From Glaucostegus cemiculus (lineage: Eukaryota), in the NCBI GenBank assembly GCA_976551045.1, contig CDPCPM010000033.1, forward strand, positions 27,466,001 through 27,530,000: a DNA stretch of 64,000 nt, written 5' to 3'. Of the stretch, positions 1 to 44,272 are shown piece after piece. The notes under the pieces were generated by a model that saw only the letters and a list, made by a program, of their open reading frames with translations, did no database searches and was not told the origin of the DNA. The position numbers and the translations under genes were made by a program. Each line of letters opens with the position of its first letter. Within the stretch, counting starts at the first letter, position 1.

Positions 1-759
1 AACTCACTACTTTGAATATGTTGGTACCTATTCAATTATGACAGCTGCAATGCTGAAACATATGCCAATATTCTCACTACAGACATTTAGTATTTGCTGA
101 GTTCCTCGAGCACTTTTTGCGTACTGACTTTGTTCTTCAAAACATCAGTAGGATGGCTGAAAGGCCACCTCAGGAATATAGGAGTGGTGCCATGCTGCAC
201 ACACCGGCTGCCTTGTCTCAGAAGAACAGCATTCAACCTTCCACCTCTACCACTCTGCTAGATCCCTTGCATTTACTTATCTACCTGACTGTCCAGAATG
301 TTGCTGCCCACCAGGAGATGATGCAGTCTGGCTCTGAGCATTCCAGGCCCAGAGCTGCTTGCATCTGTTCTCTCAGAAAATCTGTAATCTCCTCAATTGG
401 AAGTTGGCTGTCTCTCAATACAGCCAGAGGAGACAAAGGTACATGATCAATAAGGACCTAGACAATGAACAAAGATGTTTTTATTATTTTTATAAAAACA
501 TATCTTAGAATATGTACATCCAGCTGGGTTTCATTTTTTGTTGGCAGACTGGAGACTATCTATTGGACAGAAATAGAGGAAAGCCAAGGAACATGGACTC
601 TGACAAATGGGGAGCTGCAACTGACATTACTTATATCACTGTTCCATTATATCTTCATTTTCCTTTTGTGTTACTTCACTTCTTGTTCCACTCCTATCTA
701 TTCCGTTTCTTCATATTTCTGCTCATTTGATTCCCATCCAGTAGGTAGCAGACAAGGAC

Positions 760-1480
760 AGTTCCATCATGATGACTATGTCATTGGAGGATGAAACATA
801 CCACAATGGATCTTGATACCTACTCAAATGAGTACTGCAAATCTATCTAGAGCAGTTTAGGCAGCCGAAGTTTTGTTTGGTGTTCTGTTTCATGTCCTTT
901 TTGGGAGCAAGATTCTAATTCAACTCCTTTTTTTACACTGATGCAATGGATGTGAATAGGGGTCTCAAGCTATGTCATGAATAAACAACCCTCATCATCC
1001 ACAGACACCCCTATCCTTATTTTGGTCAAGCATGGGGGTGGTAAAACAAGGGGCAGAAAGGACTGCTGCAAAATGAAGGAATTTTGACAACTACCAGGAA
1101 CACAGGCATTCACCCAATCATGAGGACACACCTGCCTGACAATGAAGGAGTGAATTGATTTCAGTTCATGTAACTGCCCAAGGTTCACATGAAATGTACA
1201 TAAAGTTATGTACAAGCAAGTCAACAGCCCCTTCAACATACTGAGCCTTAAGTCTGTGCACATCCTTTCTGTCCATCCTGCTTGCCAATGTGGAGCAAGA
1301 GGTAAAACAATCAAACTGTATTTTTGTGAATGGAGAAGCCCAGTGACCTCCCTACCAGGGAACTGTGAGATATATCTCCCACAATAAAAAGCCATATTCT
1401 TAACAGTGTAATGCCAAGGTCAACTTGACAAATAAAGCAAGGCTGTCCTTACTTTATTTTGTGGCTGGATTTTGACTCAA
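760..1480 (-). mobile_element. Decayed PIF/Harbinger transposase (HARBI1-like DDE) relic
   Basis: ORF 970..1395 has ISQF..REVT, HS..V..VC.H, VNA..PGSC..SFILQQS; downstream reads FGCL..LQYSFE*VSRSIVVCFIL; colinear with HARBI1 motifs (HSLNVQLVCD, PGSxHDAFIL, GDKGY, FRCL, LQYSP, CCxLHN). Confidence 0.85.
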
Positions 1481-1997
1481 AACCTGGCCTGGTACCTGGA
1501 GTTAAAGCTTCATTTTTAAAAAGGAAAACATGAAGAAATTGCCTCTTTTTATATTAAGTTATAACCTCTTAACACAAGCACTAAAAGAACAAAAATCAAT
1601 CATTCAAACCATTTTGTTTGAATTATGAATCCTCCAAACAGTATTATTTATGCCTTTGCTAATATCAAACCCTGTTTTATGTCTACTTTTGAAGTAAAAC
1701 TAGTAAAGTCATAAATATAAACACCTGGTAATTGTCAACAATGATTAAACTAAGTGATCTTCTTAAGTTCTCCATTGTCAGTAAATCTTTAATCAGTCAA
1801 TGAAATAATGCTGACATTTATTTCTCTACCACATCTCCAGCCCATCTAAAGACCTGTTATACCCCAAGTTTATAACAACAGCAATAACACATAAATATAT
1901 CAAAATAGACCAGGACATAGAATAGAATTAATTAAAAAGTAGACAGGTACTTATTTCACACTTTTTTTTCATGTAAATCAACAAAAAGATATTCTAC

Positions 1998-2066
1998 CTT
2001 TTTCTGGAGTAACCTCTTTCTTTGGTTTCAATGGTTCAGCTGCTGGCTTCTTAGGAACTTCAGGCA
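1998..2066 (-). CDS. ttn: PEVK 69-nt repeat exon, copy 8 (P>A: VPEVPKKPAAEPLKPKKEVTPEK)
   Basis: Two adjacent substitutions; ttgaag/GTAGAA. Confidence 0.92.
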
Positions 2067-2269
2067 CTTCAAGAAATTAAAGACAACTATCATAACCAAA
2101 AGTACCAAGATAACAAGTTAAAATTGCACAAATATAATAATTTCTCTTCCACTGTAAATGTAGTGGAGAAGAAATTGACTAACCACTGAGAACAGATATG
2201 CAGAATATGTTACATTAGTAATCTCTGCTCATTCAGCACTTCACAGGTAACAGATTAAATTGGTCTAAA

Positions 2270-2540
2270 ACCAGAAAAAAGATGGGAATACTTAGCATGT
2301 CAGGCAGCATCTGTGAAGTGAGAAAGAGTTAATCTTGCAGGTCAATAACCTGTTATCAAGACCAATGAACTGAACATTCATGAGTTCTAATGCAAATTCA
2401 TCAACTTGAAATGCGTTTTTTGTGTAATACTTGAAGTATTAACACTGTTTCTCTCCCCACAAATGCTGCTGGACCTGTAGAAAATTTTCAGCATTTTCTG
2501 ATTTAATTTCAGTTTTTAACACTTGCAGTTTTTTGCCTTT
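2270..2540. mobile_element. Short element with imperfect inverted arms (CAGGCAGCATCTGTG / CACAGATGCTGC family; possibly Penelope-associated or MITE-like); related copies near 13200, 16300, 21540, 22190, 24580, 42810, 48430, 50560, 51630, 55080
   Basis: 2291-2332 is an imperfect reverse complement of 2439-2480; the motif recurs across the window; family assignment is inference. Confidence 0.6.
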
Positions 2541-3059
2541 CAATGAGTTTTCATTCTTACGTTGTTTATTGGCTTCAGGTTTTGCTAAGAGCCCTAATAA
2601 CACTTGTGACAGGAACTTAGGCAAGTAAGAAGTGGAAAGGAAAGGGGTGCAGTACTGACAAAGACAGCAGGCATTCAAGGCATTTTCTCAACAGGTAGTT
2701 GGAACAAGTAAAGATGGAGCCTAATGGCAAGCTGTTGCTTTAAGAACATGAAAGCAACATGGGGAAAAATAATACTGATCTAGAAAGAACTTTTTAGGTG
2801 AATTCAACTTCATTTAAGGTATTCAGTCACCTACTTTACAAGTCACATTCACTGCTCACTTCATTTACATACTTACTAATAATCTCCATTCGACTCAATT
2901 TACCTCTTCATATGCTACACCTCACACTCTGACACTTAGCACCATTGCAAACCTCAAACACACAACTGACCAGATTGAATATGCTAGTAGCTATTCAATT
3001 ATGACAGCTATATCACTGAAACATATTTCAGGTTTCTCACCGCAAAGCATTCTTCATTC

Positions 3060-3230
3060 TTGCAGAATGTGGCCGCTTAAAAACAGGAATCAGAATTAAG
3101 TGGAGGAGAGCAAACATGCCTAAATACTTCAACAACCAAGGAAAAGACAGTGCTGGGCATCGTGGGAAAAGGAATCACTGAAGATGTAGCCACTGGCAGA
3201 ACTAGAGGCATTGACATTCACAGTACATCC
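3060..3230 (+). mobile_element. Relic of the Harbinger Myb/SANT-like accessory ORF
   Basis: Reads SGGEQTCLNTSTTKEKTVLGIVGKGITEDVATGRTRGI, like the TGGG..LT..EE.VL.I.G motif; convergent with the transposase relic. Confidence 0.55.
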
Positions 3231-4569
3231 ACACTGGCATACTTCTCCATTCTCCATCCAGGAATTTCCTCTGTCCTCCAATCTGCACATGGCTTAAACA
3301 TCTATTTCATTGTTTCAGATCTTACTTCCACACAAATCAATCTACCTTTCTCAACACCCTAATACTAGCATCCTTCCAGTCAGTGGTGAAAGAGGAAGAT
3401 GACAGTAATGGTGAAGAGGAACTTTCACTGAATTTTACACACAGCTCCAAGATTGATACTCTGCAATTCGATGAGGATACAGGAGGGACCTGGACATGAC
3501 TAGGCAAGTGTGCATAAGCCACGGTGGGGGGATGAAGGACAATGCAGGTGCCTTCTCACCAATAGGGTAATATCATACACTAGTTCTGCTTCTGAGGTGC
3601 CTGATGAAGATCTTGGTGGCCGAACGACAGAAGAGACTGTTTCATGAACATAATCAAATAAACTGGTGTGCTATAAAGCCTGAGTTCAATGTTACATGCC
3701 ATGGATTAGTCCAGTACCAAATTGGTATCCTGCATGACACATATCTTAGGGACCACCCTCCAAGCATGGAAGAAGTCATCATCTCTATCATCATATCATG
3801 GTGGAACCAACCATGATGCCGTATCTGATGGCTGATCAAAGGTCTGACTTCTTCAGAGGAAGCTCAGAATGCATCCAATATGGCTCTGGATACCACTGTT
3901 CAAAAGGATATCCAAAAAGTCAGTCATTCATGATTCTGTTCTCCAAACCATCAGCTGGATGGCTGGAAAAGCTAACTCAGGGATAAAGGCATGGTGCTAT
4001 TCTGCATACACCTGCTGCCTTCTCTCAGGAGCAGGACATTCCACTTTCCACCACTCACACTCTGCCAGATCCCTGGCATTTATTTAACCATCTAGCTGAC
4101 TGCCAGACTGTTACTGCCCACCAAGAGATGATGTAGTCTATCACTGGGCATTCCAGGGCCAGAGCTGTTTGTGTTTGTTCTCTCATGAGACTTGCAATCT
4201 CATCAGCTGGAAGTCAATTGCCTTCCAATGTCCATGCTAAAGTTACTATGAAAGGTTCATGCAAGAGCACTAGAAGAGGCAGAGGTATATGAAAATTAAG
4301 CACTAAGGTAAATGAATTATTTTTATAAAAGCATATTTTAGAATATGTACTTCAAGCTGGGTTTCATTTTTCTGTTGGCAGACTGTTGACTGTCCAAAGC
4401 TAAGGAAAGTGGAACTTTGACAAATAGGGAGCTACAGTTGACATTACTGTTTACATTATATCTTCATTTTCCTTTTGTGTTACTCTACTTCTTGGTTCAC
4501 TCCTATCTCTTCCAGGTTTTCATCCTTCTGCTCATTTGATTCCCATCTAGTAGGCAGGAGACATGGACA

Positions 4570-5770
4570 GTTCCCTCACGATGACAATGTTGTTGCAGGA
4601 TGAAGCACTCCACAATGAATCTCGATATCTACTCAGATGAGTACTGTAAAAAACGTCTACAACAGTTTCAGCAGCCGAAGGTTTGCCTGGTGTTCTGTTT
4701 CATGCCCTTTGTGGCAGCAAGACTCTAATTTTGCTCCTACTTTATACCTACCCATTGAATATGAATAGGGATCTCAAACTATATCATGAGTGAACAACCC
4801 TTATCACCTATAAACACCCCTTTCCTTGTTTTGGTCAAATGGTGGCAAAAAAAAGGCAAAAAGGACCCAAATAAAGGCAGCAAAAATAACTGCTGCAAAA
4901 TGAAGGCATCTTGACAACTGCCAGAATAGCAGACATTCACCTATCCATGGGGGTATACTAGCTCAACAGTGAGGGAGTGAAATTATATCAATTGATGTAA
5001 CTGGCTGAGTTTCACAAGAAAGGCACATAAAGCATATATAATATGACAAAAACCAGCTTGCTCTCCACAGACTCTGTCTACACTTCTTGTGGCTTCAGAA
5101 AAGCGGCCAACATAATCAAAGACCCTGCCAACACCAGAATTCTCTCTCCTGTCTCCTCCCATTGGGCAGAAGATACAAAAACATGAAAACTTGCACCACC
5201 AGGCTCAAGGACAGCTTCCATCCTGCTGTTATCAGATGATAGAATGGAGTTCTTGTACGATAAGATGGACTCTTGACCTCACAATCTACCTCGTCATGGC
5301 CTTGCATATTATTGTCTACCTGCACTGCACTTTCTCTGTAACTGTAACACAATATTCTACATTCTATTATTGCCTTTCCCTTGTAGTACCTTGACATACT
5401 TATGTTGTGAAATGATCTGAATGGATGGCATGCAAAACAAAGTTTTTCACTGTTCCTCAGTACATGTGACAATAATAAGACAATTACCATTTACAAGAAG
5501 ACAACAGCCAATTCAACATAGTGAGCTTTTAATATGTGCACATCATTCTGTCCATCCTGCCTGCATATCTAGAGCAAGAGGTAAAAAGAGCAGGCTGTAT
5601 TTCTATAAATGGAGAAGCCCAGTGACATCCCTACCACAAAATTGAGATGTTCCTGTGTCTCCCAGAGTAATCTGGAAAAAGCAACATTCATAACAGTATA
5701 GAGCCAAGGGTCACTTTGACAACAAAAGCAAGGCCGTCCTTGCTTTATTTTGTGGATGGATTTTGACTCA
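4570..5770 (-). mobile_element. Decayed Harbinger transposase relic, interrupted by a LINE
   Basis: Reads FHSLTVELV..VNVCYSGSCQDAFILQQ, GVFIGDKGCSLMI, SLAATK, LQYSSE*ISRFIVECFIL with stops. Confidence 0.85.
5041..5491 (+). mobile_element. Rex1/Babar-type LINE 3' fragment
   Basis: Degenerate KAANIIKDP..GRRYK..TTRLKDSF ORF2 C-terminus and 3' tail; absent from the sister units. Confidence 0.8.
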
Positions 5771-6317
5771 AAACCGGCCCTGGTACCTGGAGTTAAAGCT
5801 TCAATTTTAAAAAGGGAAATGTGAAGAAATGGCCTCTCTTCATGTCAAATTTTAAAGTCTTAACACAGCCTTCAGGTTGCTTAAAGAACAAAAAATGGCT
5901 CTTCAAGCCATTTTTCTTGAATTATAAATCCCCCAAAGAGTATTACTTATGCTTTATGCTTTGATTTATCAAACCACACTTCATGTCTACTATTGGAACA
6001 AAATTGTTAAAGTTTTAAAAATAGGCACCTGGTAATTGTCAACAATGATTAAACTAGGCAATTTTCATAAGTTCTCCATTGCGACTAAATTTTATAAACA
6101 GCCAATGGATTAATCCTGACATTTCCTTCTCCACCGAATCTCCAGCCCATCTAGAGATTTGTTACACCATGATTGTGCAATAGAGCTTGTAATAATAATA
6201 ATGCATAAATTATCAAAATAGACAAGGACATAGAATAGAATTAGTAATTAAAAAGTAAAAAGGTACTTATTTCACACTAATATTTTGAGCATTTAAATCA
6301 ACAAAAAGATATTCTAC

Positions 6318-6386
6318 CTTTCTCTGGAGTAACCTCTTTCTTTGGCTTCAATGGTTCAGGAGCTGGCTTCTTAGGAACTTCAGGCA
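6318..6386 (-). CDS. ttn: PEVK 69-nt repeat exon, copy 7
   Basis: Two synonymous differences from copy 1; inside ORF 6298..6480. Confidence 0.92.
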
Positions 6387-7545
6387 CTTCAAGAAATATT
6401 ATAATTTTATAATTAAATACAACTATTATAACCAAAATTACTTTTATAACAAGCTGACAAAGCACAAATATATGTGTCAAAGAAATGAGATACCTAGTAA
6501 TTTCTCTTCTCCTGTAAATTACATCCCTTTCCTTATTTTGGTCAAGTATAGGGTTGTCAAAAATAGAGGGAAAAACAAGTGCAGCAAAATGAAGGAATTT
6601 CTACTACTCCTGGGATAGCAGGCATTCTCCTACTCTTGGTGTCACTTCAGTTCAACACTGAGAGATATAAGATCCCTCTGAGTTCACGAAAATGGTCAAG
6701 TTTCATGAGAATTGTGTGCAAGTCCACATACATATAGTCAACAGCCCTTGCAAAATACAGAACATTTAGCTTTTTGCATATGGTTCTCCTCATCCTGCCT
6801 ACATATCTACAGCAAAAGCCAACAAGAGGAAGCTGCACTTCTGTGCATATGGAAACCCAACGACTTCCTTTGCAGGGAACTGTGAGATGTTGATTGTATC
6901 CTGGAGAAAGCCAGATTCATAACGATTTACAGCCAGAGTCACCTTGACAGGAAAAAGCAAAGCCCTAGCTCTACTTTGTGGACTTGACGCACAACCTTGT
7001 CTGGTACCTTGAGTAAATGTTCCAGTTTAAGAAGTGGAAATGAGAAGAAATAGCTTCTTTTCATGTCCATTTATAAAGTCTTAACACAAGCACCAGGTTA
7101 CTTAAAGAATAAAAAAAAGCTCTTCAAATCATTTTGCTTGAATTATAAATCCTCCAAACAGTATTACTTATGCTTTATGCTTTCATTTATCAAACCACAC
7201 TTTATGTCTACTATTGGAATTAAATTATTAAAATTTTAAAAATAGGCACCTGGTCATTGTCAACAATGATTAAACTACACAATTTTCTTAAGCTCTGCAT
7301 TGCGACTAAATTTTATACTCAGCCAATGGATTAATCCTGACATTTCCTTCTCCACTGAATCCCCAGCCCATCTAGAGATTTGTTACACCCATGATTGTGC
7401 AATAGAGCTTATAATAATAATAATAATAATGCATAAATTATCAAAATAGACAAGGACATAGAATAGAATTAGTAATTAAAAAGTAAAAAGGTACTTATTT
7501 CACACTAATATTTTGAGCAATTAAATCAACAAAAAGATATTCTAC

Positions 7546-7614
7546 CTTTCTCTGGAGTAACCTCTTTCTTCGGTTTCAATGGTTCAGGAGCTGGCTTCTT
7601 AGGAACTTCAGGCA
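7546..7614 (-). CDS. ttn: PEVK 69-nt repeat exon, copy 6
   Basis: Two synonymous differences from copy 1. Confidence 0.92.
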
Positions 7615-9160
7615 CTTCAAGAAATATTATAATTTTATAATTAAATACAACTATTATAATCAGAAGTAATATTATAACAAGCTGACAAAAAACAAATATA
7701 TGTGACAGAGAAATGAGATACCTAATAATTTCTCTTCTCCTGTAAATGAAATGCCTTTCCTTATATTGGTCAAGTATAGAGTTGTCAAAAATAGAGGGAA
7801 AAACAAGTGCAGCAAAATGAAGGAATTTATACTACTCCTGGGATAGCAGGCATTCTCCTACTCTTGGTGTCACTTCAGTTCAACACTGAGAGATATAAGA
7901 TCCCTCTGAGTTCACGAAAATGGTCAAGTTTCATGAGAATTGTATGTAAGTCCACATACAAGTAGTCAATAGCCCTTGCAAAATAAAGAACATTTAGGTT
8001 TTTGCACATTGTTCTCCTCATCCTGCCTACATATCTACAGCAAACGCCAGCAGGAGGAAGCTGTACTTCTGTGCATAGGGAAACCCAGTGACTTCCTTTG
8101 CAGGGCACTGTGAGTTGTTGATTGTACTCTGGAAAAAAATCAGATTCATAACGATTTACAACCAAAGTCATCTTGACAGGAAAAAGCAAAGCCCTAGCTC
8201 TACTTTGTGGATTTGACACAAAACCTTGTCTGGTTACCTCGAGTTAATGTTCCATTTTAAAAAAAGGGAAATGAGAAGAAATTGCCTCTTTCATGTCGAG
8301 TTACAAAGTCCTAACACAAGCATCAGGTTGTTTAAAAAACATATATTGGCTCTGTAAACCATTTTGCTTGAATTTTGAATCCTCAGAACAGAATCATTTA
8401 TGCTTTATGCTGATATCAAACCATATCTACTTTGGAATGAAATTAGTACAGTCATAACTATAGGTACCTAGTCATTGTCAACAATGATTAAACTAAGTGA
8501 TTTTTGGAAATTCTTCATTACCAGGTAGATCTGATAATCAGCCAAATGGAATAATTCTGACATTTATTTCACTACTAAATCCTTGGCCCACTTAAAGGTT
8601 TGTTATACTCTCAACTGCACAACAATAATAACACCTGAGTTCATCAAAATTGACATGGATAAAGCCACATTCATAACAGTGTAGAGCCAAGGCCACTTTG
8701 ACAACAAAAGCAAGGCTGTCCTTGCTTTATTTTGTCCTGGATTTTGACTCAAAACCTGCCATGGTAGCTGGAGTTAAAGCTTCAATTTTGAAAAGGGAAT
8801 TGTGAAGAAATGGCCTCCTTTCATGTCAAATTATAAAGTCTTAACACAAGCTCCAGATTGCTTAAAGAACAAAAAACGGCTCTTCAAACCATTTTTCTTG
8901 TATTATAAATCCTCCAGACAGTACTATTTCTGCTCTATGCTTTGAATTATCAAACCACACTTCATGTCTACTATTGGAATGAAATTATTGATCTTTTAAA
9001 AATAGGCACCTGGTCATTGATTAAACTAGGCAATTTTCATAAGTTCTCCATTGCGACTAAATTTTATAAACAGCCAATGGATTAATCCTGACATTTCCTT
9101 CTCTAACGAATCTCCAACCCATCTAGAGATTTGTTACACCCTTGATTGTGCAATAGAGCT

Positions 9161-9162
<2 letters not shown>

Positions 9163-9204
<42 letters not shown>
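9163..9204. repeat. (TAA)14 microsatellite; homologous tracts of 4, 6, 9 and 6 units at 6190, 7412, 10386 and 11593
   Basis: Counted directly. Confidence 0.95.
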
Positions 9205-9207
<3 letters not shown>

Positions 9208-9320
9208 ATAAACTATCAAAATAGATGAGGACATGGAATAGAATTAGTAATTACAAAGTAAACAGGTACTTAATTCACACAAATAATTTTAGTATTTAAA
9301 TCAACAAAAAGATATTCTAC

Positions 9321-9389
9321 CTTTCTCTGGAGTAACCTCTTTCTTTGGTTTCAATGGTTCAGGAGCTGGTTTCTTAGGAACTTCAGGCA
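9321..9389 (-). CDS. ttn: PEVK 69-nt repeat exon, copy 5
   Basis: Two synonymous differences from copy 1. Confidence 0.92.
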
Positions 9390-10383
9390 CTTCAAGAAAT
9401 ATTATAATTTTATGATTAAATACAACTAGTATAACCAAAAGTACTTTTATAATAAGCTGACAAAGCACAAATATACGTGACAGAGAAATGAGATGCCTAA
9501 TAATTTCTCTTCTCCTGTAAATGGAATGCCTTTCCTTATATTGGTCAAGTATAGGGTTGTCAAAAATAGAGGGAAAAACAAGTGCGACAAAATGAAGGAA
9601 TTTTTACTACTCCTGGAATAGCAGGCATTTTCCTACACTTGGTGTCACTTCAGCTCAATACTGATTGATGCCTGATCACCCATAGTTCATGAAAATGGTC
9701 AAGTTTCATGAGAATTATATGCACGTCCACATACAAGTAGTCAACAGCCCTTGTAAAATACTGAACATTTAGCTTTTTGCATATGTTTCTCCTCAATCTG
9801 CCTACATATCTATAGTAAAAGCCAACAAGAGGAAGCTGTACTTCTGTGCATAGGGAAACCCAATGACTTCCTTTGCAGGGAACTGTGAGATGTTAATTGT
9901 ATCCTGGAGAAAGGCACCTTGACAGGAAAAAACAAAGCCCTAGCTCTACTTTGTGGACTTGACACACAACCTTCTCTGCTACCTCGAATTAATGTTCCAG
10001 TTTAAAAAAAGGAAAATGAGAAGAAATTGCCCCTTTTCATGTCCATTTATAAAATCTTAACGCAAGCACCAGGTTGCTCAAAGAATAAAAAAAGAGCTCT
10101 TCAAATCATTTTGCTTGAATCATAAATCATCCAAACAGTATTATTTATGCTTTATGCTTTGATTAATCAAACCACACTTTATGTCTACTATTGGAATTCA
10201 ATTATTAAAGTTTTAAAAATCACCTGGTAATTGTCAACAATGATTAAACTACGCAATCTTATAAAGTTCTCCATTGCGACTAAATGTTATACACAGCCAA
10301 TGGATTAATCCTGATGTTTCCTTCTTTACCGAATCTCCAGCCCATCTAGAGATTTGTTACACCCTTGATTGTGCAATAGAGCT

Positions 10384-10415
<32 letters not shown>

Positions 10416-10527
10416 ATAAACTATCAAAATGACAAGGACATAGAATAGAATTAGTAATTGAAAAGTAAACAGGTACTTACTTCACACTAATATTTTGAGC
10501 AATTAAATCAACAAAAAGATATTCTAC

Positions 10528-10596
10528 CTTTTTCTGGAGTAACCTCTTTCTTTAGTTTCAATGGTTCAGGAGCTGGCTTCTTAGGAACTTCAGGCA
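10528..10596 (-). CDS. ttn: PEVK 69-nt repeat exon, copy 4 (P>L: ...PLKLKKE...)
   Basis: One substitution at 10554. Confidence 0.9.
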
Positions 10597-11726
10597 CTTC
10601 AAGAAATATTATAATTTTATGATTAAATACAACTATTATAACCAAAAGTACTTTTATAATAAGCTGACAAAGCACAAATATACGTGACAGAGAAATGAGA
10701 TGCCTAATAATTTCTCTTCTCCTGTAAATGGAATGCCTTTCCTTATATTGGTCAAGTATAGGGTTGTCAAAAATAGAGGGAAAAACAAGTGCGACAAAAT
10801 GAAGGAATTTTTACTACTCCTGGAATAGCAGGCATTTTCCTACACTTGGTGTCACTTCAGCTCAACACTGATTGATGCCTGATCACCCTTAGTTCATGAA
10901 AATGGTCAAGTTTCATGAGAATTATATGCACGTCCACATACAAGTAGTCAACAGCCCTTGTAAAATACTGAACATTTAGCTTTTTGCATATGTTTCTCCT
11001 CAATCTGCCTACATATCTATAGTAAAAGCCAACAAGAGGAAGCTGTACTTCTGTGCATAGGGAAACCCAATGACTTCCTTTGCAGGGAACTGTGAGATGT
11101 TAATTGTATCCTGGAGAAAGGCACCTTGACAGGAAAAAACAAAGCCCTAGCTCTACTTTGTGGACTTGACACACAACCTTCTCTGCTACCTCGAATTAAT
11201 GTTCCAGTTTAAAAAAAGGAAAATGAGAAGAAATTGCCCCTTTTCATGTCCATTTATAAAATCTTAACACAAGCACCAGGTTGCTCAAAGAATAAAAAAA
11301 GAGCTCTTCAAATCATTTTGCTTGAATCATAAATCATCCAAACAGTATTATTTATGCTTTATGCTTTGATTAATCAAACCACACTTTATGTCTACTATTG
11401 GAATTCAATTATTAAAGTTTTAAAAATCACCTGGTAATTGTCAACAATGATTAAACTACGCAATCTTATAAAGTTCTCCATTGCGACTAAATGTTATACT
11501 CAGCCAATGGATTAATCCTGATGTTTCCTTCTTTACCGAATCTCCAGCCCATCTAGAGATCTGTTACACCCATGATTGTGCAATAGAGCTTATAATAATA
11601 ATAATAATAATACATAAACTATCAAAATAGACAAGGACATAGAATAGAATTAGTAATTGAAAAGTAAACAGGTACTTACTTCACACTAATATTTTGAGCA
11701 ATTAAATCAACAAAAAGATATTCTAC

Positions 11727-11795
11727 CTTTTTCTGGAGTAACCTCTTTCTTTGGTTTCAATGGTTCAGGAGCTGGCTTCTTAGGAACTTCAGGCA
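11727..11795 (-). CDS. ttn: PEVK 69-nt repeat exon, copy 3
   Basis: Identical to copy 1; donor GTAGAA. Confidence 0.92.
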
Positions 11796-12893
11796 CTTCA
11801 AGAAATATTATAATTTTATGATTAAATACAACTATTATAGCCCAAAGTACCAAGCTGACAAAGCACAAATATATGTGTCAAAGAAATGAGATACCTAATA
11901 ATTTCTCTTCTGTAAATGGAATGCCTTTCCTTATATTGGTCAAGTATAGGGTTGTCAAAAATAGAGGGAAAAACAAGTGCAGCAAAATGAAGGAATTTCT
12001 ACTACTCCTGGGATAGCAGGCATTCTCCTATTCTTGGTGTCACTTCAGTTCAACACTGAGAGATATAAGATCCCTCTGAGTTCACGAAAATGGTCAAGTT
12101 TCATGAGAATTGTATGTAAGTCCACATACAAGTAGTCAACAGCCCTTGCAAAATAAAGAACATTTAGGTTTTTGCACATTGTTCTCCTCATCCCCCCTAC
12201 ATATCTACAGCAAAAGACAAGAAGAGGAAGCTGCACTTCTGTGCATAGGGAAACCCAGTGACTTCCTTTGCAGGGAACTGTGAGATGTTGATTGTATCCT
12301 GGAGAAAGCCAGATTCATAACAATTTACAGCCAAAGTCACCTTGACAGGTAAAAGCAATGCCCTAGCTCTACTTTGTGGATTTGATACACAACCTTGTCT
12401 GGTACCTTGAGTTAATGTTCCATTTTAAAATGGGAAATGAGAAGAAATGGCCCATTTTCATGTCCAGTTATAAAGTCCTAACACGAGCATTAGGTTGTTT
12501 AAAGAACAAATATTGGCTCTATAAACCATTTTGCTTGAATTTTGAATCCTCAAAACAGAATCATTTATGCTTTATGCTGATATCAAACCATATCTTCTTT
12601 GGAATGAAATTAGTACAGTCATAAATATAGGCACCTGATCATTGTGAACAATGATTAAACTAAGTGATTTTTGGAACTTCTTCATTACCAGTAGATCTGA
12701 TAATCAGCCAAATGGAATAATTCTGACATTTATTTACCTACTAACGCCTTGGCCCATTTAAAGTTTGTTATACCCTGAATTGCACAATAATAATAACATC
12801 TAAATTGTCAAGGATATAGAACAGGTTACAATGTGGCAAGGTACTTTTTCACACTAATAGTTCAAGTATTTAAATGGACAAAAAAATACATAC

Positions 12894-12962
12894 CTTTTTC
12901 TGGAGTAACCTCTTTCTTTGGTTTCAATGGTTCAGGAGCTGGCTTCTTAGGAACTTCAGGCA
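12894..12962 (-). CDS. ttn: PEVK 69-nt repeat exon, copy 2
   Basis: Identical to copy 1; donor GTATGT. Confidence 0.92.
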
Positions 12963-14729
12963 CTTCAAGAAATATTATAATTTTATGATTAGATATAACT
13001 CATAACCAAAGATACCATTATACCTTGTTAAAATAGCACCAACATATTACAGAGAAATTTGATACTTGACATTTATGCTTCTTTAGTAGATATATTGAAG
13101 AAGAAATTGGCTATCCACCAGGAACAAGTATGTAGAACAGAGTACATGATTAATCGGTGCTCATTCATTAACTTGCAGGGAACTGGTTAAACTGGTCTGA
13201 AAACAGTGAAAGATGGGAATAATTAGCAGGTAAGGCAGCATCTGTGAAGAGAGGAACAGTTAACCTTAAAAACTGTTAACCTCTCATTAGAACAGAACTT
13301 TCACCTGTTTGATGCAAGTTCATCAGCCGATACACTAACTTTGTTTCTCTCTCCCCAAATGATGCCAGATATGCTGAGCAATTGCAGAATTTTCTGGTTT
13401 AGTATCATGTTTCAAGTATCTGCAGCTTTTTGTTTTTTACATAAAGTTAACTGAAATGTTGTCTATTGGCTGCAGGTTATGGGAAGAATATAAGAATTAA
13501 AGGAAATAGGAGCAAGTGTAGGCCACTTCTTTACTTCAGATTTTACTTCCACACATATCAATCTTCCTTCTATTTTCACTTCAGATACCTACAAGTGGCA
13601 CCTTTCCAGTCAGTGATAGAAGAAGAAGACGACAGAAATGCTGAAGAAGCGTTGTCACTGAATTTTACTTGTAGCTCAGAGATTGATATTGTGCATTTTT
13701 ATGAGGATACATGAGGCCCATATGTATAAGCCAGGGCAGAAGGAATAATGGACTATGCAAATGCTAGCTCACCAGAGATAATATCATACATTAATTCTGC
13801 TTCAGAGGTGTTCTGATGAAGACTTTGGTGGCCGACTAAAGAGGAAGACTGATTCATGAACGTTACCAAGTGCCTAGTGTACTGTTAAAACTTCCAGAGT
13901 TACTAACTGTAAAGGAGACCAGCACCAAACTGCTATCCAGCTATGCACAAATCTGAGGTCCCACCTTCCAAGCATGGAAGTAGTCATTATTTCCATCATC
14001 ATATCAGTTCATCCAAGCATGATGCACCATACTATGACTGATCAAAGGTCTGACCCCTGTAGATGAAGCTTAGAATGTCTCCAATGAACCTAATAACAGT
14101 GTCACAATTGTTTATGAATTTGTTCGCCAAAAGATCAGCAGGATAGCTGAAGAGCTACCTCAGGAAAATAGTAGTGGTGTATTGCTCCCTTTTCTCAGGA
14201 GAATTTCAGCTCCTACCTCTGACACTCTGGCAAATGACTCTTATCTATCTGCCAAACTGCCCAGAATGCTGCCATGACGTGATGCAACCTGGCATTGAGC
14301 TTTCCAGGTGCTGAGCTGCTTCAGTTTGTTATCCAAGGAAATCTGCGGTCTCAAATCAGCAGTTCCAATGCCCATGCTGCATGTACTGTGAAAGGGCTAT
14401 ATAAGAGCGCCAGCAGAGACAAAGGTAAACACGAAGCAAGCACTTTTATGTCATGTTTACATTTATAACTTTGTATTAGAATATGCATTTCCATCCAGGT
14501 TTCATTTTTCTGTTGGCAGAACAGGGATATTTCATTGGTCCTTGATAGAAGACAGGTAAGAAATATGGGCCTTGGACAAAAGGGAAGCTGTGGTTGACAT
14601 TACTTATAATCACTATTTATATTGTATCTTTCTTTCTCTTTGTGTTGCTCTTCTTGTTTCACTCCCATATCTTCTGCTTCTTCATTCTTCTGCTCTACTG
14701 ATTCCCATTCAATAGGTAGTGACAAGGAT

Positions 14730-15440
14730 TACTCCTTCATGATGACAAAGCTGATGTAGAATAAACGATGACACAATTAATCTTTATATCTGCGCAGATA
14801 AGAACTGCAAAGGATTTCTACGATATATTAGGCTGCAGAAGGTTTGCTTGTGGGTTGCCTTTTGCTCCTTGTGACAGCAAGACTCTTACAGTAGGCTCAT
14901 GGTATACCAATGCATGATTTCTGAATAGGGGCCATTAACTATCTTATGAGTGAATATCCCTCATTATCCAGTGGTCATCACTTTCCCTGTTTTAGTGGTC
15001 AAGCACAGGTGACAAAACAGAGGACAAAAAAGGGACTGCTGCAAAATGAAAGAACTGTGACTACTACCATGATAACAGGCTACCCATTCACCTACCCATG
15101 GTGACTCACTAGGTCAACAATGAAGGAATGAAATCCCTTTCAGTTCATTAAAATGGCCAAGATACATATGAGGTACATGTAAAATCATGTACGAGCTGTT
15201 GACAGCCCCTGAGACTTTGTGCTCATTCTGCCTGATGTCTGTAGCAAGAAGCAGTAAGAGGAAGCTGTACTTCTGTGCACAGAGAAGTACATTGATCTCC
15301 ATTCCTGGAAACGGTGATATGTTGCTTGTATCTCCTGGAATACGCTGGAAAAAGCCTGATTCAAAAAAGGTAAGAACCACAGTCACTGTGATAAGTACAA
15401 GCAATACTGCCCTTGCTCCAGCTTCAAGTTGAAATCTGAC
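14730..15440 (-). mobile_element. Decayed Harbinger transposase relic in the long unit
   Basis: ORF 15114..15404 has VTVVLTFFESGFFQRIPGDTSNISPF...GAVNS..LHVPH..LKG. Confidence 0.85.
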
Positions 15441-15977
15441 TCATAACCTGGCATGGTGCCTCGCTTTAAGTTTCCATTTTAAAAAGAAATGAGAGGAAAT
15501 TGCTTCTTTTAATTTGAGGTGACAAACTCCTAACACGAGGGTTTAAAGAACAAAAATTGGCTCTGCAAACCATTTTGATACAATTATGAATTCTCAAAAC
15601 AGTACTATTTATGCTTTATATTGATATAGAACCACATTTTATATCTACTATTATTGAAGTCATAAATTAGTCATAAATACAGGCCCCTGGTAATTGACAA
15701 CAATGACCAATTGAGGCAATTTCATAAGTTGTCCATTGTCTGCAAACTCAATAATCAGCCAATGGAATATCGAGGACATTTATTTCCCTACCACATTCAA
15801 GGTCAACCTAAAGATTTGTCTGATCCTCGATTGTGCAATAGAATTTATAGTAACAATAACAATACATAAATAAATCAAAACCCAAATGTAAACAGAACAG
15901 AATTAATAATTAAATAGTAACAAGGTACTTTCTCACATAAATATTTCAAGTATTTAAATCAATAAAAAGATACAGAC

Positions 15978-16046
15978 CTTTTTCTGGAGTAACCTCTTTC
16001 TTTGGTTTCAATGGTTCAGGAGCTGGCTTCTTAGGAACTTCAGGCA
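15978..16046 (-). CDS. ttn: PEVK 69-nt repeat exon, copy 1 (VPEVPKKPAPEPLKPKKEVTPEK)
   Basis: ttgaag/GTCTGT. Confidence 0.88.
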
Positions 16047-17413
16047 CTTCAAGAAATATTATAATTTTAAGATTAATTAAACTGTCATAAAACAATACCA
16101 ATATGACATGATAAAATAGCACAAACATATAATAGACTAATTTGATACCTTACATTTACTCTTCTCCAGTAAACATATTAAAGAAGAAAATGGCTAACTA
16201 CCAAAAACAGGTATGTAGAACAAGGTACATAATTAATCTGTGCTCATTCATTACTTTGCAGACAACAGGTTAAACTGGTCTGAAAAACAATAAAAGATGG
16301 GAATACTTAGCAGGCCAGGAAGCATCTGTGAAGAAAGAAACAGTTAACCTTTGAAATTGATGACCTTTCATGAGGATTAATGAACAGAATTGTAACCTGC
16401 CTGATGCAAGTTCATCAGCCTGAAACATTAACTCTGTATCTTGCCTCGAATGATGCCAGACTTTCATGATGCAGCATCTGATGGCTGACAAAAGGTCTGG
16501 CTTCTGTATAGGAAAATTAGAATGTCTCCAAGAACTCAAAATACCTCCGTTCAAAAGGGCTTCCACAATGCCACAGTCACATCTTTCTTCAAAAGATCAG
16601 CAGGATAGTTGAAGAACCACCTCAGGAAAATAGGAGTGGCACCATGCTACCCTTTCACCCATTCTTGTCTGAGGCATGAAATTCGAAATGGCAGTGTTGC
16701 AACAAAGACTAATGTGATAACATGACTGCTCTGCTTGTTCCTAGCATACTATTTTAAACTTGCACGGACACCGTGTGTACATTACACTTCTGACACAAAA
16801 TTCAAGCTTTTTTCAATGGGCACTATGGAGCTTAATTTTCCCCCAGTGGGACAGATCATCAAATTTGACTGGATGTAATGGAATGTCATTGATTTGAACT
16901 ATTAACTTTCTTTCTCTCTCTGCCAATGAGTACTTCTAATATTTTCTGTTTTAGTAAAACTTATACAATGCCCTCTTAGAAACTACTTGACTTTCAATGC
17001 TGATTTTACAGCTGACATAAATGATCAAAATAATAATAAACAATAATTAAATTTGCTAGCATTCATCTATAGTAAATCATTCCCAGGAGAAGTAAACTGA
17101 AAGCCAGTTTATGTCAAAGAGTTTGGTCATATTTTTCAATACCCAATAATCATAGTAAGGATCATGGATAACAACATCATTTCTGGGGTGATTTCAAATC
17201 CGTGAGTACAAAATCCAGTACTCATTTAATTGATATTATGTATTGAAACTTACTTCCAACTGCTGTTTTGCTAGAACTTTATCAATAATCCATCCAAACA
17301 GATATACTATGATACAAATCGCATCAAAAGAAGTTGACAAATTTGGGAAACATATAAATACAATCTTTAAATATGCACACTTAAAGCTATATAAAATTTA
17401 AGTATTTTTGTAC

Positions 17414-34717: not shown

Positions 34718-34983
34718 ATTTGGTATTGGTATTGGTTTATTATTGTCACTTGTACCAAGGTACAGTGAAAAGCTTGTCTTACAAACCGATCATACAGGTC
34801 AATTCATTACACAGTGCAGTTACATAGTTAGTACAATGTGCATTGATGCAGTACAGTAAGAACAGTAACAGTACAGAATAAACTGTCACAGCTACAGAGA
34901 AAATGCAGCGCAATAAGGTGCAAGGTCGCACAAGGTAGAATGTGAGGTCAAAGACCATCTCATTGTATAAGGGAACCGTTCAA
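34718..34983 (-). mobile_element. LINE 3' tail inserted into the CR1 fragment
   Basis: ttggtattggtattggtttattattgtcac is the reverse complement of a poly(A) signal plus tandem tail. Confidence 0.6.
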
Positions 34984-36288: not shown

Positions 36289-37811
36289 CTGGCATATTAA
36301 AGGATTTATGTTTAATTTAGTAATAGGCTATCAAAATTGTTTATTCAAACTTGCAATGAAACTCATACAAAACTGGTAGCAGGCAATGGTAGTATCTAAA
36401 TCAAAGTTTCCCTTCCATCACATAACTCTTGTATCTTTCTCCATACAACCTTTCAGGGACATTACCCATAAACATGTCAGATTCTACTCTGATGACATAT
36501 GTTCTAGCTCACAATATTATTCAATGCTCTCCAATGCATTTGGTTTGTCACGCTTACCCAATTTCTAGTGCTGGAATCTTGTACTAATGGGAAAACTGAA
36601 TCAAATTTTGGCAGCATCACCCTCAAACCTAATTTCCCAGAAAATGATCTTACCCTCTCTATGGGCATCATTTGAGGCTGAACTAAATTTACTTCTGTCT
36701 TTGACATTCTAGTTGACCTTGAGTTAAACTTCCAGGCCTGTACCCTCTCTAGCACCATGGCTATTTATTATCACCTCCATAATAGTGCCCATTTCCAGCA
36801 TCATCATGGCCAATCCATGGTTTTGTTAAACACAGACTCAGTATTTAAAAATCATTGCATTTTATACCCTCCTCTAATTTGAGCTCTAAATTTTGCTGAT
36901 CATCCATAATTACAACCCTCCAAGAATTTTGCTTTCTTCTACTTCTGGTTTCTTGTCCATGTCCAACTTCCTTTGCCTTATCAGTGGCAATTGTATCTTC
37001 AAGTTTAAAGATCCAAATTACTTCCCTAAACATTACCACCTTTCAATTATTTTAGACACTCTTCAAAACTACTTCTCTAACCAGATTCTATCTCTATTTT
37101 GACTCCGTGTCAAAATTTGTATGAAGTGCTTCTGTGATCTTTCGTTAAACAGGCCACATAAATAAAAATTGCAGATAACAATTACTTAAACAATGATTTT
37201 TATGTCAATGAAACAGTTGTAGTTAAAAGAAACATTTTTTGAAATGATCTTTCATATCTTTTTTAAAAATCTGTGCTCCAGAACTTGGTGAGTGTGGCTC
37301 ACCACCCACATTCATTGTTGCTGATGACACTTAGATTTATATTCAGAACTTGTTGGTCCTCTGTGGCAATAAGGCCTTGCATGTGTTAGTTGGACCATTA
37401 AGCTCTAAAATGGAAGCACTGGTGTCAAATTTGACTTGTAGAATGATTAACATGATCTGACTAGCATATATACTTCTTGCATGCATTGAAGATGCAATTT
37501 TGGTACCTAAATGCCACCAATAGGGCACAACTAATGGGCACTGTGCCAAACCACATTTTTTTATTGTGCACCTAAAATAATGCAAGTATCAAAATTTTTT
37601 CAAGAACAAAGACAATACAACACAGTATTAGGGCGGCACAATATCATCAGCAAAAATATAAAACAGTGTACGTTGTACATTAACATTCACAAGTAGCGGA
37701 GCATTGGCAATCTGAAGCCTCTAAAACAGAAATACCTGCCTGGATAATGACAACATCAATACACTGACAATCTAAAGAATAATTCTAGTACAAAATGTGC
37801 CTTCCTTGTAC

Positions 37812-37886
37812 CTTCTTTTGGTGCAACCTTTTCTTTTCGTGTAACTGGTCTCATTTCTTCAGGTACAAACTTTGGAATCCCAGGCA
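37812..37886 (-). CDS. ttn: PEVK exon, 75-nt family (VPGIPKFVPEEMRPVTRKEKVAPKE)
   Basis: ttaaag/GTACAA. Confidence 0.87.
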
Positions 37887-38759
37887 CTTTAAAATAGTCA
37901 ATTTCAGACAAAACTATATCAAATACTTGCCCTTAGGCCATTTTATCATTGCAAAATACATAACATTAATCAGAAAGAAGCAATTAATATATAACACAAT
38001 TATTGTCACCATAATTTCTCAATTTGCATTACGGTTCTAGCATACGTAAAGTTATTATTGCATAATGGAATCTAGTTAATTAGAGGAATGACAATAAGCC
38101 CTCAGTTATATAGTGTTCTTGTGATTATTTTAAGGCTCAGGTCACCTGCCCCTGTAAAATTTAGGGAATAACAAACCTTTGTGGAATTGCAATAATACAG
38201 TCAAGACATTAACCAGAATTAACCTGTAAACGCAGATGATCCATTGAAATAGCTCGGCATGAGTATGAGTTCGAGATGGTAGGGAACAGGTGGGGAGGGG
38301 TGTTTTCTACTTGCTGCTGAATGGCAAGTTATCGGTATGCCATCACCAACATCATTCCATCTTAATCATGCTACAAATCACTGAGCACACAGTGGATGTC
38401 ATTTGGTACACAAATGTCATTTTCAGCACAGCTTTGTGGGCCGAAGGGCCTGAATTGTGCTGTATGTGTTCTATGTTCTATGAGACCTGTAGCACCTGGA
38501 CTACTTTGTCAAATTTTGATATACAAATAGTATAATTTTAATGGTTAATTAACCATAATGCAAATGAAAAAATTATGTAATGTACAAGGACAACAAAATA
38601 AAGTTTGACTGCACATACAAGAAATTAAAAGATCATAAGTTTTTAGGTGTTGAATATATCTGGGCATTGTTAACTTGAAGCCCATAAAAAAGAAATACTT
38701 TCGAAGACGATGATGATTATGCACAAGAAATAATTCTACTACAAAGCATTCTTTTGTAC

Positions 38760-38834
38760 CTTTTATTGTAGTAACTTTTTCTATTCTTGTAACTGATTTC
38801 ACTTCTTCCAGAGAAAACTCAGCAACCTCAGGAA
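38760..38834 (-). CDS. ttn: PEVK exon, 75-nt family (VPEVAEFSLEEVKSVTRIEKVTTIK)
   Basis: ttaaag/GTACAA. Confidence 0.85.
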
Positions 38835-39004
38835 CTTTAAAAAAACATGTAATTTATGGACAAAAGAATATCAAAAATGTGCGCTTACAACAAATGAACG
38901 TACCAATACACATTACATTATGTAGAAAGACACAACAAACATATACAGTATCGTGCTAATAACACCATAATTTCTCATTTTGCATTATGATCTTGGTATA
39001 AGAA

Positions 39005-39390
39005 AATAGAGACATAAGAACTAGAAGGAAGAATTGGCCCCCTGTGGCTGCTCTGCCTTTTGATAAAGTCATATCTGATCTATTACCTCAATGCTATGTC
39101 CTGCACTGACCATATATCCCTAAATTCCCTAAATATCTAAAAATCTATCAGCGACCAAGCCTTCTTTGTCCTCTTTGATCAAGGTTTCCAAAGATTCATC
39201 ACCCACTGAGGTGGTGGAACTTTGGAAACCTTGAAATTTCTATGCATCTCTGTCCTGAATAACCAGGCCATTATTTTAAGATTGTGACCCCTGGTCCTAA
39301 AAACTCCAACTGGGTGAAACATCAACCCCACATATATTCTGTCAAGCCCTGTAAGAATTTTGTACTATTGGCCCAATCTGCTTATTCTTA
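39005..39390 (-). mobile_element. Old CR1 3' fragment
   Basis: acataagaa tail and ttttaagattgtgacccctggtccta (RGHNLK-type motif on the minus strand). Confidence 0.6.
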
Positions 39391-40472
39391 GGAAGTCAGA
39401 AGTTTCCACATTGACCACATGACAGATATACCAGAACAAATGGAGAAGTGTAAGAGTTGAGTCAGGATGTCATTGCCAGAAGTATCTATACCAAAGATGC
39501 AAACACTGTTAAAATGGTCTAAGCATCCGAGAAAGCCTGTGCACAGATTGAAGCTGCAAGTGATGTATATTTGCAAAACACTCCTTCAAAAAAGGGAAAG
39601 CAGTTGGCCTATCATTATGTAAATGGGCTTCATGTACTTATGAGGGAATTACATAATCATTAACATGACATATCCAGCTATTGCCTTACAGAGCCCAATG
39701 AGTTAATGCAGAAGTAATTAGCAACCTCAATTTTGCAATGATCCTCTGAATATTTTAATGCTCAGCTCTAGACTAATCCAAGTGATTTGTTTGAAACATT
39801 GAAAAATCTTATCAGCACTAAAGATTGCTGCAACTCAAATCAATGATAGAAAACAGCAAGAGCTCATGGGATTGCAGTCAGAGCTAGAAGAAATTAATTT
39901 CAACTAACCTATAAGTAGTTGATGGTCCATTTGAATATATTTAGTGGGCTGGTAGGAGTGTGCATGAAATTCCTTTATGCTGCCTACATATGTAAATTAG
40001 CCATGCATGTTTATGAATTAATTAGCTGCAACACCAAGCTCCTAAGGAAAATGCAGTGTTAATGTGCAACGAAACTGATTGTTTCATGAGCTGGCAATGA
40101 AGCATTCCTCTACGGTGATGAATACACCATTACCAATATATTGCTCATGCATATCATACTACAAGTGATGGAGTAGAGTGCAGGTGTTATTTTGGTACCC
40201 AGATGTCACCCAGTAGCACCCAAGAATGGGCTAATTGACCCAATTTTTTTTCTGTATAACCGACCATAATGCAAGTATCAAAATTATTTCATGGGCAAAG
40301 GCAACAAAATATAACACAAATACAGAAACAAATTAATAAAAAAAACCTGGAAATATTTAATAATTATTGGGGCATTGGTTATCTGAAATGTTTAAAACAA
40401 AAATAATTTCCAAGATAATGGTATGATGTTCTTCCAAAGAAGTAATTCTGGTATAAAACTTTTGCCTTGTAC

Positions 40473-40547
40473 ATTTCAATGGAGCAACCGCTTCTTTTAG
40501 TGCAACTGGTTTCACTTCTTCAGCAACCAACTCAGGAATCTCAGGCA
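40473..40547 (-). CDS. ttn: PEVK exon, 75-nt family (VPEIPELVAEEVKPVALKEAVAPLK); last base T instead of G
   Basis: ttaaag acceptor, weak AAT/GTACAA donor. Confidence 0.7.
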
Positions 40548-41269
40548 CTTTAAGAGTTTAATTTTTTGGACAAAAGAATGTCAAAAGATGTTCATTTAGA
40601 AAATGTTAACACAGAAATGCACATAACATTAAACACAACAAGAGCAACAAATATGGGGCCCAATTTACCATCTTGTGTTAATCACACAATAATCTCATCT
40701 AAATTATTTTTTTGTTTTATATATAAGCTTATTTGCCTTATTAAATCTAGTAAATTTAATGGAGCAGCAAATAGCCAACTTGACTAAACAAAAAAAATGG
40801 GATATTTTAATTTTCAGTTATCAACCAATCTCTTTTTTTTTGCTTTAAGTCTCCTCTCCACATTTTCCAATTCTTCTAATTGTCCTGCAAGTCTTATTTT
40901 CTTTTGGACTGGTGTTTTTTATAACCACTTTCCAATAAGTCTACCATGTAACAGCACCATGCTTTTTGGACCATAACATTATGCTTATGATTGAATATGC
41001 TACTGATAACTCAACTGGCATGCTGGAAGAGTGAAAGTCTACTTTCTTGCCAACACTTAAAATCTCTTTTCAAAATGTCTTTACAAATGGTATTTCTGCA
41101 GATTTTAATTCTAGAAATAAAGCATCCCAGATTGATGGGTATTCAGAGCATTGTTCTCCAGTGGACAAATTTTCAGTCTGAATATTTACGGTTAGTGGTG
41201 TCATTCAAAAATTGAACACTTTTTATTAATAACCACATCTATATGCTATCATATGCTTGTATGCTTTTC

Positions 41270-41460
41270 TAATCTCTACTAATAAGCAACTGAAACATTT
41301 GTATATGATAACTACTGCCAGCTGCCACTAAGAAGGGACCATTAGCACAGAACACCATTGACATGATTACCATGGCAACTACTGACATTGCGTTTCCTGC
41401 TTTGCTACGAGAATGCAAGAGGACATTTTCAGTGAGGATGTTATTTCTGGAGTACATTTC
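41270..41460 (-). mobile_element. Harbinger transposase relic (N-terminal part); homologous relics at about 43020-43300 and 46420-47090
   Basis: LHSRSKAGNAMSVVAMVIMSMVFCANGPFLVAAG; LQSRIREALAVAIKVIRA; LPVAIKVTIV..SSFQTAAGNSS. Confidence 0.7.
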
Positions 41461-42112: not shown

Positions 42113-42187
42113 CTTTAACTGGGACAATCTTTTCTTTTCGTGTAATTGGTTTCATTTCTTCAGTAACAAATTCTGCAACCTCAGTCA
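42113..42187 (-). CDS. ttn: PEVK exon, 75-nt family (VTEVAEFVTEEMKPITRKEKIVPVK)
   Basis: ttaaag/GTACAA. Confidence 0.85.
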
Positions 42188-44197: not shown

Positions 44198-44272
44198 CTT
44201 TTATTGAAGCAACCTTTTCTTTTTGTATAACTGGCTTCGCTTCTTCAGGAATAAACTCAGGAATGCCAGACA
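44198..44272 (-). CDS. ttn: PEVK exon, 75-nt family (VSGIPEFIPEEAKPVIQKEKVASIK)
   Basis: ttaaag/GTACAG. Confidence 0.85.

Follow-up and report, generated by a model that had tools for sequence, protein, structure and literature searches.

Does a transposon that lies inside a duplicated stretch of titin cause the duplication, or is it carried along with it? The question is raised by 64,000 nucleotides of DNA from Glaucostegus cemiculus (GenBank assembly GCA_976551045.1, contig CDPCPM010000033.1, positions 27,466,001 to 27,530,000 of the forward strand), here called the window. On its minus strand lies what is likely a titin gene, with an array of short PEVK exons, and behind each of eight nearly identical exons lies a decayed transposon of the PIF/Harbinger type. 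Transposons are often credited with the duplication of PEVK exons, and in the accessible text of PMC12241362 this is suggested for cartilaginous fish without an analysis. At the present locus the causal claim can be put to the test at each breakpoint, since the exon stays constant and the relic changes at a neutral rate.

The probable answer is that the array was amplified in tandem together with an intron that is mostly one Harbinger relic. The element was likely dead beforehand and likely a passenger, and it served as the substrate of a crossover in one of the three duplications that can be resolved.

The exon family consists of eight copies of 69 nucleotides (nt), all on the minus strand and in phase 1, symmetric, with AG/GT ends and 0-4 pairwise differences. 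The peptide PEVPKKPAPEPLKPKKEVTPEK is encoded by 6/8 copies. The exon numbers, E1 to E8, begin at the left end of the window; the gene reads from right to left, and E8 is the first in transcription. U1 to U8 are the introns downstream, which is to say to the left, of each exon. A further intron, U9 (16047-17413), lies upstream of E8, and U4 consists of two pieces, U4b adjoining E4, plus U4a. An earlier sequence-only reading of this DNA had described eight exon copies, each paired with homologous intron sequence. This is what is found, with the relic present in 8/8 downstream introns.

Among the eight exons there are 2 non-synonymous and 5 synonymous variable sites, against a divergence of 0.18-0.27 in the nearer flank of old pairs. 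For the 12 of 28 pairs reported, the probability of seeing as few non-synonymous changes as observed is 3e-4 to 1e-7 in old pairs, and synonymous change is mostly at the expected level. Because amino-acid changes are this scarce relative to flank divergence, the copies behave like coding exons under purifying selection, and the constraint is at the protein level.

Some details of the exons and their edges stand apart from this. E6, E7 and E8 are identical across 69 bases although their introns are 22-32% apart. About 24 nt of acceptor flank is nearly uniform in E2-E8, perhaps through selection on splicing signals or short gene conversion. Gene conversion of the exon itself is not established: synonymous homogenisation is seen only in E6/E7/E8, at P ~0.015, over three non-independent pairs of the 12 reported. 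A TAA microsatellite in the donor flank has expanded to 16 copies in U4b (9162-9211) and 11 copies in U5 (10385-10419).

The transposase is too broken to be picked up directly. Pfam scans of single window frames, with X at stops, gave no DDE_Tnp_4 match (0/30 and 0/54 frames). A profile made from three relic pieces matched 25 proteins at E<=0.001 among 1.84 billion, the best at 5.8e-16, and 25/25 of these carry PF13359 (DDE_Tnp_4) above cut-off. The ten that were looked up are all annotated 'putative nuclease HARBI1', from Pristiophorus, Heptranchias, Heterodontus, Scyliorhinus and Narcine. Tblastn of the matched proteins gave 55 hits in the window, all on the minus strand and within 763-15437, and 0 on the reversed window. 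The sequence-only reading had proposed a HARBI1-like DDE transposase with stops in titin's orientation, and both searches agree with it.

In a frameshift-aware profile alignment, 8/8 downstream introns score above 22 controls, with best pieces of 27.5-111.3 versus 13.2-20.5 bits. By unit the scores are U1 109, U2 25 plus 88, U3 53, U4a 37, U5 28, U6 32, U7 54 and U8 111 bits; U4b (17 bits) and U9 (18 bits) are at control level. Stops or frameshifts occur in 8/8 aligned pieces, which leaves no open frame, and none retains all three acidic residues of the D-D-E triad. By these alignments the relic is a decayed PIF/Harbinger DDE_Tnp_4 transposase, nearest to HARBI1-like elements of sharks and rays. 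A word-index homolog search with the transposase alignment found none among 1760 candidates, which is weak evidence for so decayed a query, and a search of PDB sequences returned 0.

Two side observations belong here. Only in U2 is the transposase split by an insertion (~5050-5480), which matches 34727-34971 on the opposite strand at 67% and also 49662-49721. Neither this insert nor two open reading frames (ORFs) near 49.5 kb has a Pfam match; the insert resembles the 3' end of a LINE-type retroelement, and the ORFs too may be LINE-like. Separately, an apparently intact HARBI1-like protein of 395 amino acids (aa) occurs in Narcine bancroftii under four accessions (P0008, XP_069759287.1-XP_069759290.1), and might be a domesticated Harbinger gene of rays.

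According to the sequence-only reading, a single ancestral insertion beside the exon had become part of the duplication unit. The units are in line with this. The presumed exon-side end of the element lies at a homologous place in all of them, 138-200 nt from the donor (the position in U8 was set by eye), and the spread in this distance comes from the TAA run and small indels. Nested in U2, U8 and U9, at one corresponding position, is a palindromic repeat of high copy number. At the column of a conserved Trp, a TAG stop is found in U1 (970), U2 (4779) and U8 (14939), which is 3/3 of the copies covering that column. Because boundary, nested repeat and stop are shared, independent insertions are very unlikely, and the copies would descend from one ancestral relic. 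Because the TAG is common to the long copies, the death of the element likely preceded the first duplication. The short copies have a history in common as well, since 5/5 show one and the same deletion junction. Similarity to DDE_Tnp_4 and a common breakpoint beside the exon are thus both found; the lack of either was what the sequence-only reading had named as speaking against itself.

Distances on the donor side give the order of events. U8 differs from the rest by 0.29-0.31, U7 from U1/U2 by 0.25, and U1 from U2 by 0.18. The later pairs are U4a-U7 at 0.089, U4b-U2 at 0.084, U3-U6 at 0.072 and U5-U6 at 0.007. U3, U5 and U6 are chimeras, being U2-like for ~450 nt from the exon and U7-like beyond. 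In U3 the informative sites are U2-like by 75:13 and then U7-like by 13:159 (max chi-square 157, 0 of 2000 permutations). The switch keeps the register and falls within the relic, ~270 nt past the presumed end of the element and ~110 nt short of the first transposase residue that aligns. Had U2 and U7 crossed over unequally at this point, exactly the observed order of units would result. Other recombination tests were negative or weak: U2 versus U1/U7 gave 468/2000, U7 versus U1/U8 565/2000 and U1 versus U2/U8 66/2000.

The next duplication took in a block of two exons, from U7 to the start of U2, whose copies now differ by 7-9%. Its junction joins non-homologous positions with few bases in common. 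The newest duplication, U5/U6, has a period of 1207 nt, with 7 substitutions and 2 gaps. Within the relic, stretches of U3, U4a and U7 are only 1-3% apart, which suggests later gene conversion among them. Since units are mosaic or gene-converted, a single tree of whole units would mislead. Read together with the crossover map, the donor-side distances make the relic a useful though mosaic record of duplication order, largely as the sequence-only reading expected.

Of the three resolvable duplications, then, one has its breakpoint inside the relic, one in host intron and one at an out-of-register junction. The relic makes up 68-72% of a short unit, and 1 of 2 in-register crossovers in the relic is chance level.

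The rest of the gene offers a comparison. A scan of the minus strand found 21 short PEVK-rich exons between 2 and 51 kb, in phase 1, of 63-84 nt and 54-86% PEVK; a later search added further ones. That the gene is likely titin is read from this layout, because its symmetric exons are short, rich in P/E/V/K and arrayed along a single strand. Eight of its exons, of 75 nt, form a second family at 37.6-51.3 kb (37585-51381), whose flanks were co-duplicated and are 70-83% identical. Beyond 16.7 kb no transposase match is better than E 0.049 (at 57.7 kb). This means that the present gene can amplify its exons with no Harbinger that is detectable. The proteins of the 75-nt family are far more diverged than those of the 69-nt family, and the copy at 40473 has T instead of G before the donor.

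The relic is therefore not supported as a driver: the newest crossover lies in host intron, the block junction is out of register, the relic's share of crossovers is at chance level, and the 75-nt family has no Harbinger match. On these very small numbers, there is no sign of crossover enrichment in the relic. The sequence-only reading had gone further, with relic homology promoting unequal crossing-over. For one event, the crossover inside the relic, that may hold; the remaining breakpoints and the second family do not bear it out.

The probable history is as follows. A Harbinger element would have inserted ~170 nt behind the exon, taken up the nested repeat and acquired a stop. Old duplications would then have given U8, U7, U2 and U1 (p ~0.30, then 0.18-0.25), with U7 deleting ~2.6 kb. 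An in-register unequal crossover of U2 and U7 inside the relic would have added one exon and produced the chimeric U3/U6 type. Duplication of the two-exon block, with its out-of-register junction, may have come next (p 0.07-0.09), and after it an in-register crossover in the host acceptor flank, giving U5/U6 (p 0.007). Purifying selection preserves the symmetric 69-nt exon, and each copy would contribute 23 elastic PEVK residues if spliced in. The copies, the relic, the lesions held in common, the breakpoints and the constraint on the protein are observed; the order of the old events, the splicing and any effect on stiffness are what we infer.

Several points weigh against this account, in whole or in part. 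PPAK (PF02818) matches only weakly, in 2/7 exons tested and both times below cut-off (E 0.013 and 0.3), with no match in the 69-nt exon, and no Ig, Fn3 or kinase exons are among the window's 14 ORFs of >=110 aa. The profile query is the C-terminal half of the transposase from U1, U2 and U8 only, which makes the C-terminal scores of these units circular; the N-terminal matches of U3, U4a, U5, U6 and U7 are the less circular part. The shared death of the element hangs on one stop codon, two further stops each being common to only two of the three long copies. Three events make too small a sample for an estimate of enrichment. At position 1 the match of U1 to U2 still goes on, which means that the array continues past the left edge and that its far end, and with it the founding event, is out of view. 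U9 holds the second-ORF side of the element, with neither transposase nor a donor flank of the unit type, and may be what is left of a ninth unit after the loss of one half, or else one member of a pair of elements on the two sides of a single exon. The block junction, if it does not reflect a crossover between non-homologous positions, may instead go back to an in-register duplication, with a ninth exon lost afterwards by deletion. At 0.7%, U5 and U6 could be two alleles assembled in tandem.

The opposite view makes the transposon the founder: two Harbinger copies in the same orientation, flanking one exon, crossed over, and relic homology drove further expansion. This is unlikely, but it can point to the element remnant in U9 upstream of the first exon, the right part of which is not homologous to the donor flank of the units. 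It can also point to the one later crossover in the relic and to the U3, U4a and U7 stretches, which are as close as after gene conversion. LINE-1 has been proposed in the same role for primate PEVK, going by the available parts of PMC6469411 and PMC12241362. Yet in U9, just as in U8 and U2, the element stands behind the nested repeat and the acceptor flank, the arrangement that a ninth unit minus half would show. Two of the three resolvable duplications bypassed the relic, the second exon family expanded with no Harbinger match, and no intact terminal repeats or target duplication mark two insertions. A bolder version has two dead Harbinger copies flanking one exon found the array early in this lineage, the relic having driven recombination ever since and so adjusted the length of the titin spring from one species, and one individual, to the next. 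If true, a fossil DNA transposon would be a long-lived copy-number dial for muscle stiffness; we find this quite doubtful.

The other explanations fit the units less well. Harbinger elements have target preferences, and the 20-32% between old copies is a divergence that separate members of a family might show; this could be taken to mean that the relics are independent insertions near the exon, or that an active element moved the exon. Such a history is very improbable and, as far as separate insertions go, largely refuted: the host flanks to either side are homologous and have diverged at the pace of the relic, the stop codon and nested repeat are held in common, and the exon lies outside the presumed element end. 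It would be equally surprising if the relic had been kept through co-option, for example as an intronic splicing element or a promoter for the exon array. Although every unit retains 450 nt on the exon side together with the N-terminal portion of the transposase, the relic has diverged as much as host flank (0.23-0.32 versus 0.18-0.31), and large parts were freely lost in U7, in U9 and in U8 of a related organism (C); what survives in the five short units goes back to a single deletion. That most of the array is an assembly artefact is hardly credible. U5 and U6 are only 0.7% apart and no contig spans the whole stretch, but all other unit pairs differ by 7-31%, and the relatives have, on the U7 region, the many contigs of a multi-copy unit. 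The relic is best taken as a passenger that now and then served as a substrate for recombination.

These relatives help to date the array. In three other organisms (B, C and D; contigs of runs X3, X8 and X11) orthologues of U8/E8/U9 diverge by 0.043-0.097, measured on 9 long pieces chosen from 32 rows shown, of >12,000. The orthologues are ~95% identical, and the paralogue distance of U8, at 0.29-0.31, is far above theirs. With Jukes-Cantor correction the oldest duplication stands at 0.38 versus ~0.05 for the orthologue splits. Because the orthologues of U8 are so much closer than its paralogues, the oldest duplication is, on these distances, several times older than the splits from these relatives. 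In X3 and X8 as many as 8 distinct contigs cover a single site of the U7 region, and their contigs break at E8. This is in keeping with several short units there, contig depth not being read as copy number. Among the X1 pieces listed, 4/8 are identical to the window. In organism C (X8) one contig joins 13128 to 14279, a deletion of ~1.15 kb that removes the nested repeat and the second-ORF side of U8.

The long unit was also said, in the sequence-only reading, to hold a convergent Myb/SANT-like relic. This fares less clearly than the transposase. Pfam scans found no Myb family (0/30, 0/54 and 0/9 frames); two homolog searches (449 and 3960 candidates) were empty, which is weak evidence for decayed queries; and the Atlas had no usable match for a 45-aa piece of the second ORF. 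Teleost Harbinger Myb-like proteins have a short motif just past the Myb domain, as seen in part of the supplement of PMC9179366. A relaxed form of this motif matches the window once, at 3099 (+), and 0/300 shuffles, though the pattern was tuned after viewing the window. A looser form has 1 window match and 1 in 300 shuffles, and a strict form 0 window matches. Comparison with the teleost proteins went no further than inspection by eye and the short motif. On this footing the second ORF, convergent with the transposase, is likely Myb/SANT-like.

The ends of the element are less distinct. A candidate pair of terminal repeats in U2, at 2152-2177 and 6120-6145, is 26 nt long and 73% complementary; it is the second longest of 65 in U2 and not significant. 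With one of four profile widths it comes third among ~64,000 positions, and it was not recovered in U8. Terminal inverted repeats of Harbinger are given as 25-50 bp in the accessible part of PMC9179366. The triplets at the candidate ends, where a 3-bp target-site duplication would be, do not match; the left end is uncertain and the copy old. In the short units the deletion sets in ~10 nt within the left-hand candidate repeat (U2 2149-2160), perhaps by coincidence, perhaps as a vestige of the element's end. Table 1 lists the features.

Table 1. Features of the two PEVK exon families and the Harbinger relic, in positions of the window
Feature	Position	Strand
PEVK exon E8, first copy transcribed	15978-16046	-
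PEVK exon E7	12894-12962	-
PEVK exon E6	11727-11795	-
PEVK exon E5, Pro to Leu change	10528-10596	-
PEVK exon E4	9321-9389	-
PEVK exon E3	7546-7614	-
PEVK exon E2	6318-6386	-
PEVK exon E1, Pro to Ala change	1998-2066	-
Harbinger transposase relic, long unit U8, profile 29-325, 111 bits	14612-15453	-
Transposase relic, short unit U7, profile 37-191	11959-12382	-
Transposase relic, short chimeric unit U6	10771-11186	-
Transposase relic, short chimeric unit U5, 0.7% from U6	9582-9927	-
U4b, truncated exon-side end of U2-type relic, alone without significant protein score	8656-9120	-
Transposase relic U4a, U7-type, no exon in front	7789-8213	-
Transposase relic, short chimeric unit U3	6561-6984	-
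Transposase relic, long unit U2, split by insertion ~5050-5480	4507-5764	-
Transposase relic, long unit U1, unit runs past left edge of window	744-1486	-
High-copy palindromic repeat nested in ancestral unit	2215-2560 (U2); 13151-13432 (U8); 16234-16425 (U9)	
Likely Myb/SANT-like relic of the second ORF in U2, convergent to transposase; motif 3099-3167, possible intron ~2798-3064	2690-4290	+
DNA homologous to second-ORF relic of U2	U1 1-77, 125-404; U8 13527-14520; U9	
U9, remnant of the element's second-ORF side upstream of first exon, no transposase	16430-16660	+
Presumed exon-side element end (U2 instance)	6120-6148	-
Deletion junction of short units, U2-equivalent ~2160 joined to ~4810; same in U4a, U5, U6, U7	6510-6525	
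In-register crossover, U2-type to U7-type, within relic close to start of transposase ORF	U3 7092-7101; U6 11275-11277; U5 10044-10057	
Out-of-register block junction (near 8655), transposase N-terminal region joined to host donor flank	8650-8662	
Crossover of newest duplication, host acceptor flank, 41-44 nt from E5	10636-10641	
75-nt PEVK exons	37812, 38760, 40473, 42113, ~44180, 45649, 47791, 51200	

Transposons within duplicated PEVK blocks are not new. A LINE-1-containing PEVK-C triplication was reportedly described by Bang et al. in 2001. In human TTN a PEVK triplication containing LINE-1 is known, with related duplications in apes, according to the available parts of PMC6469411 and PMC12241362. 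There, as here, PEVK exons and introns were amplified in tandem with a transposable element in the block, and the same partial sources propose the element as an aid to duplication. The differences are considerable. The present unit has one exon, not nine, and its element is the relic of a DNA transposon, likely dead beforehand. At least six duplication steps are spread over p 0.007-0.30, versus two recent ones in human. Breakpoints can be mapped here, and only one of three is in the element.

Compared with PIF/Harbinger elements of sharks and rays (XP_067854380.1, XP_069759287.1; PF13359), the relic has DDE_Tnp_4 over 29-325, at ~27-35% identity in tblastn pieces, and likely a second ORF with the post-Myb motif. 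Unlike them, all copies are broken, terminal repeats and target duplication are not demonstrable, and the copies spread by tandem duplication of the host and not by transposition. Nor is the relic a domesticated HARBI1 gene.

The nearest comparison among cartilaginous fish is elephant shark connectin, which in the accessible text of PMC12241362 has many alternatively spliced PEVK exons, with transposons suggested for multi-exon duplications. In that text the transposon itself was not looked for, and the suggestion concerns 6-Ig repeats, in a chimaera. Both are PEVK arrays of cartilaginous fish, but Harbinger is found only here, being undetected in elephant shark as far as the available part of PMC9179366 goes. 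A literature search, with subscription papers and preprint supplements outside it, found no description of this titin/Harbinger case. It is apparently undescribed, although a transposon inside a duplicated PEVK block is known from the human LINE-1.

On the causal claim the verdict goes both ways: the element took part once, was bypassed twice, and was unneeded for the neighbouring array. No new mechanism is revealed by this. What the locus does provide is an old Harbinger family in the gene of a shark or ray, and with it a dated record of successive gains of PEVK copies, of use when shark muscles are compared.

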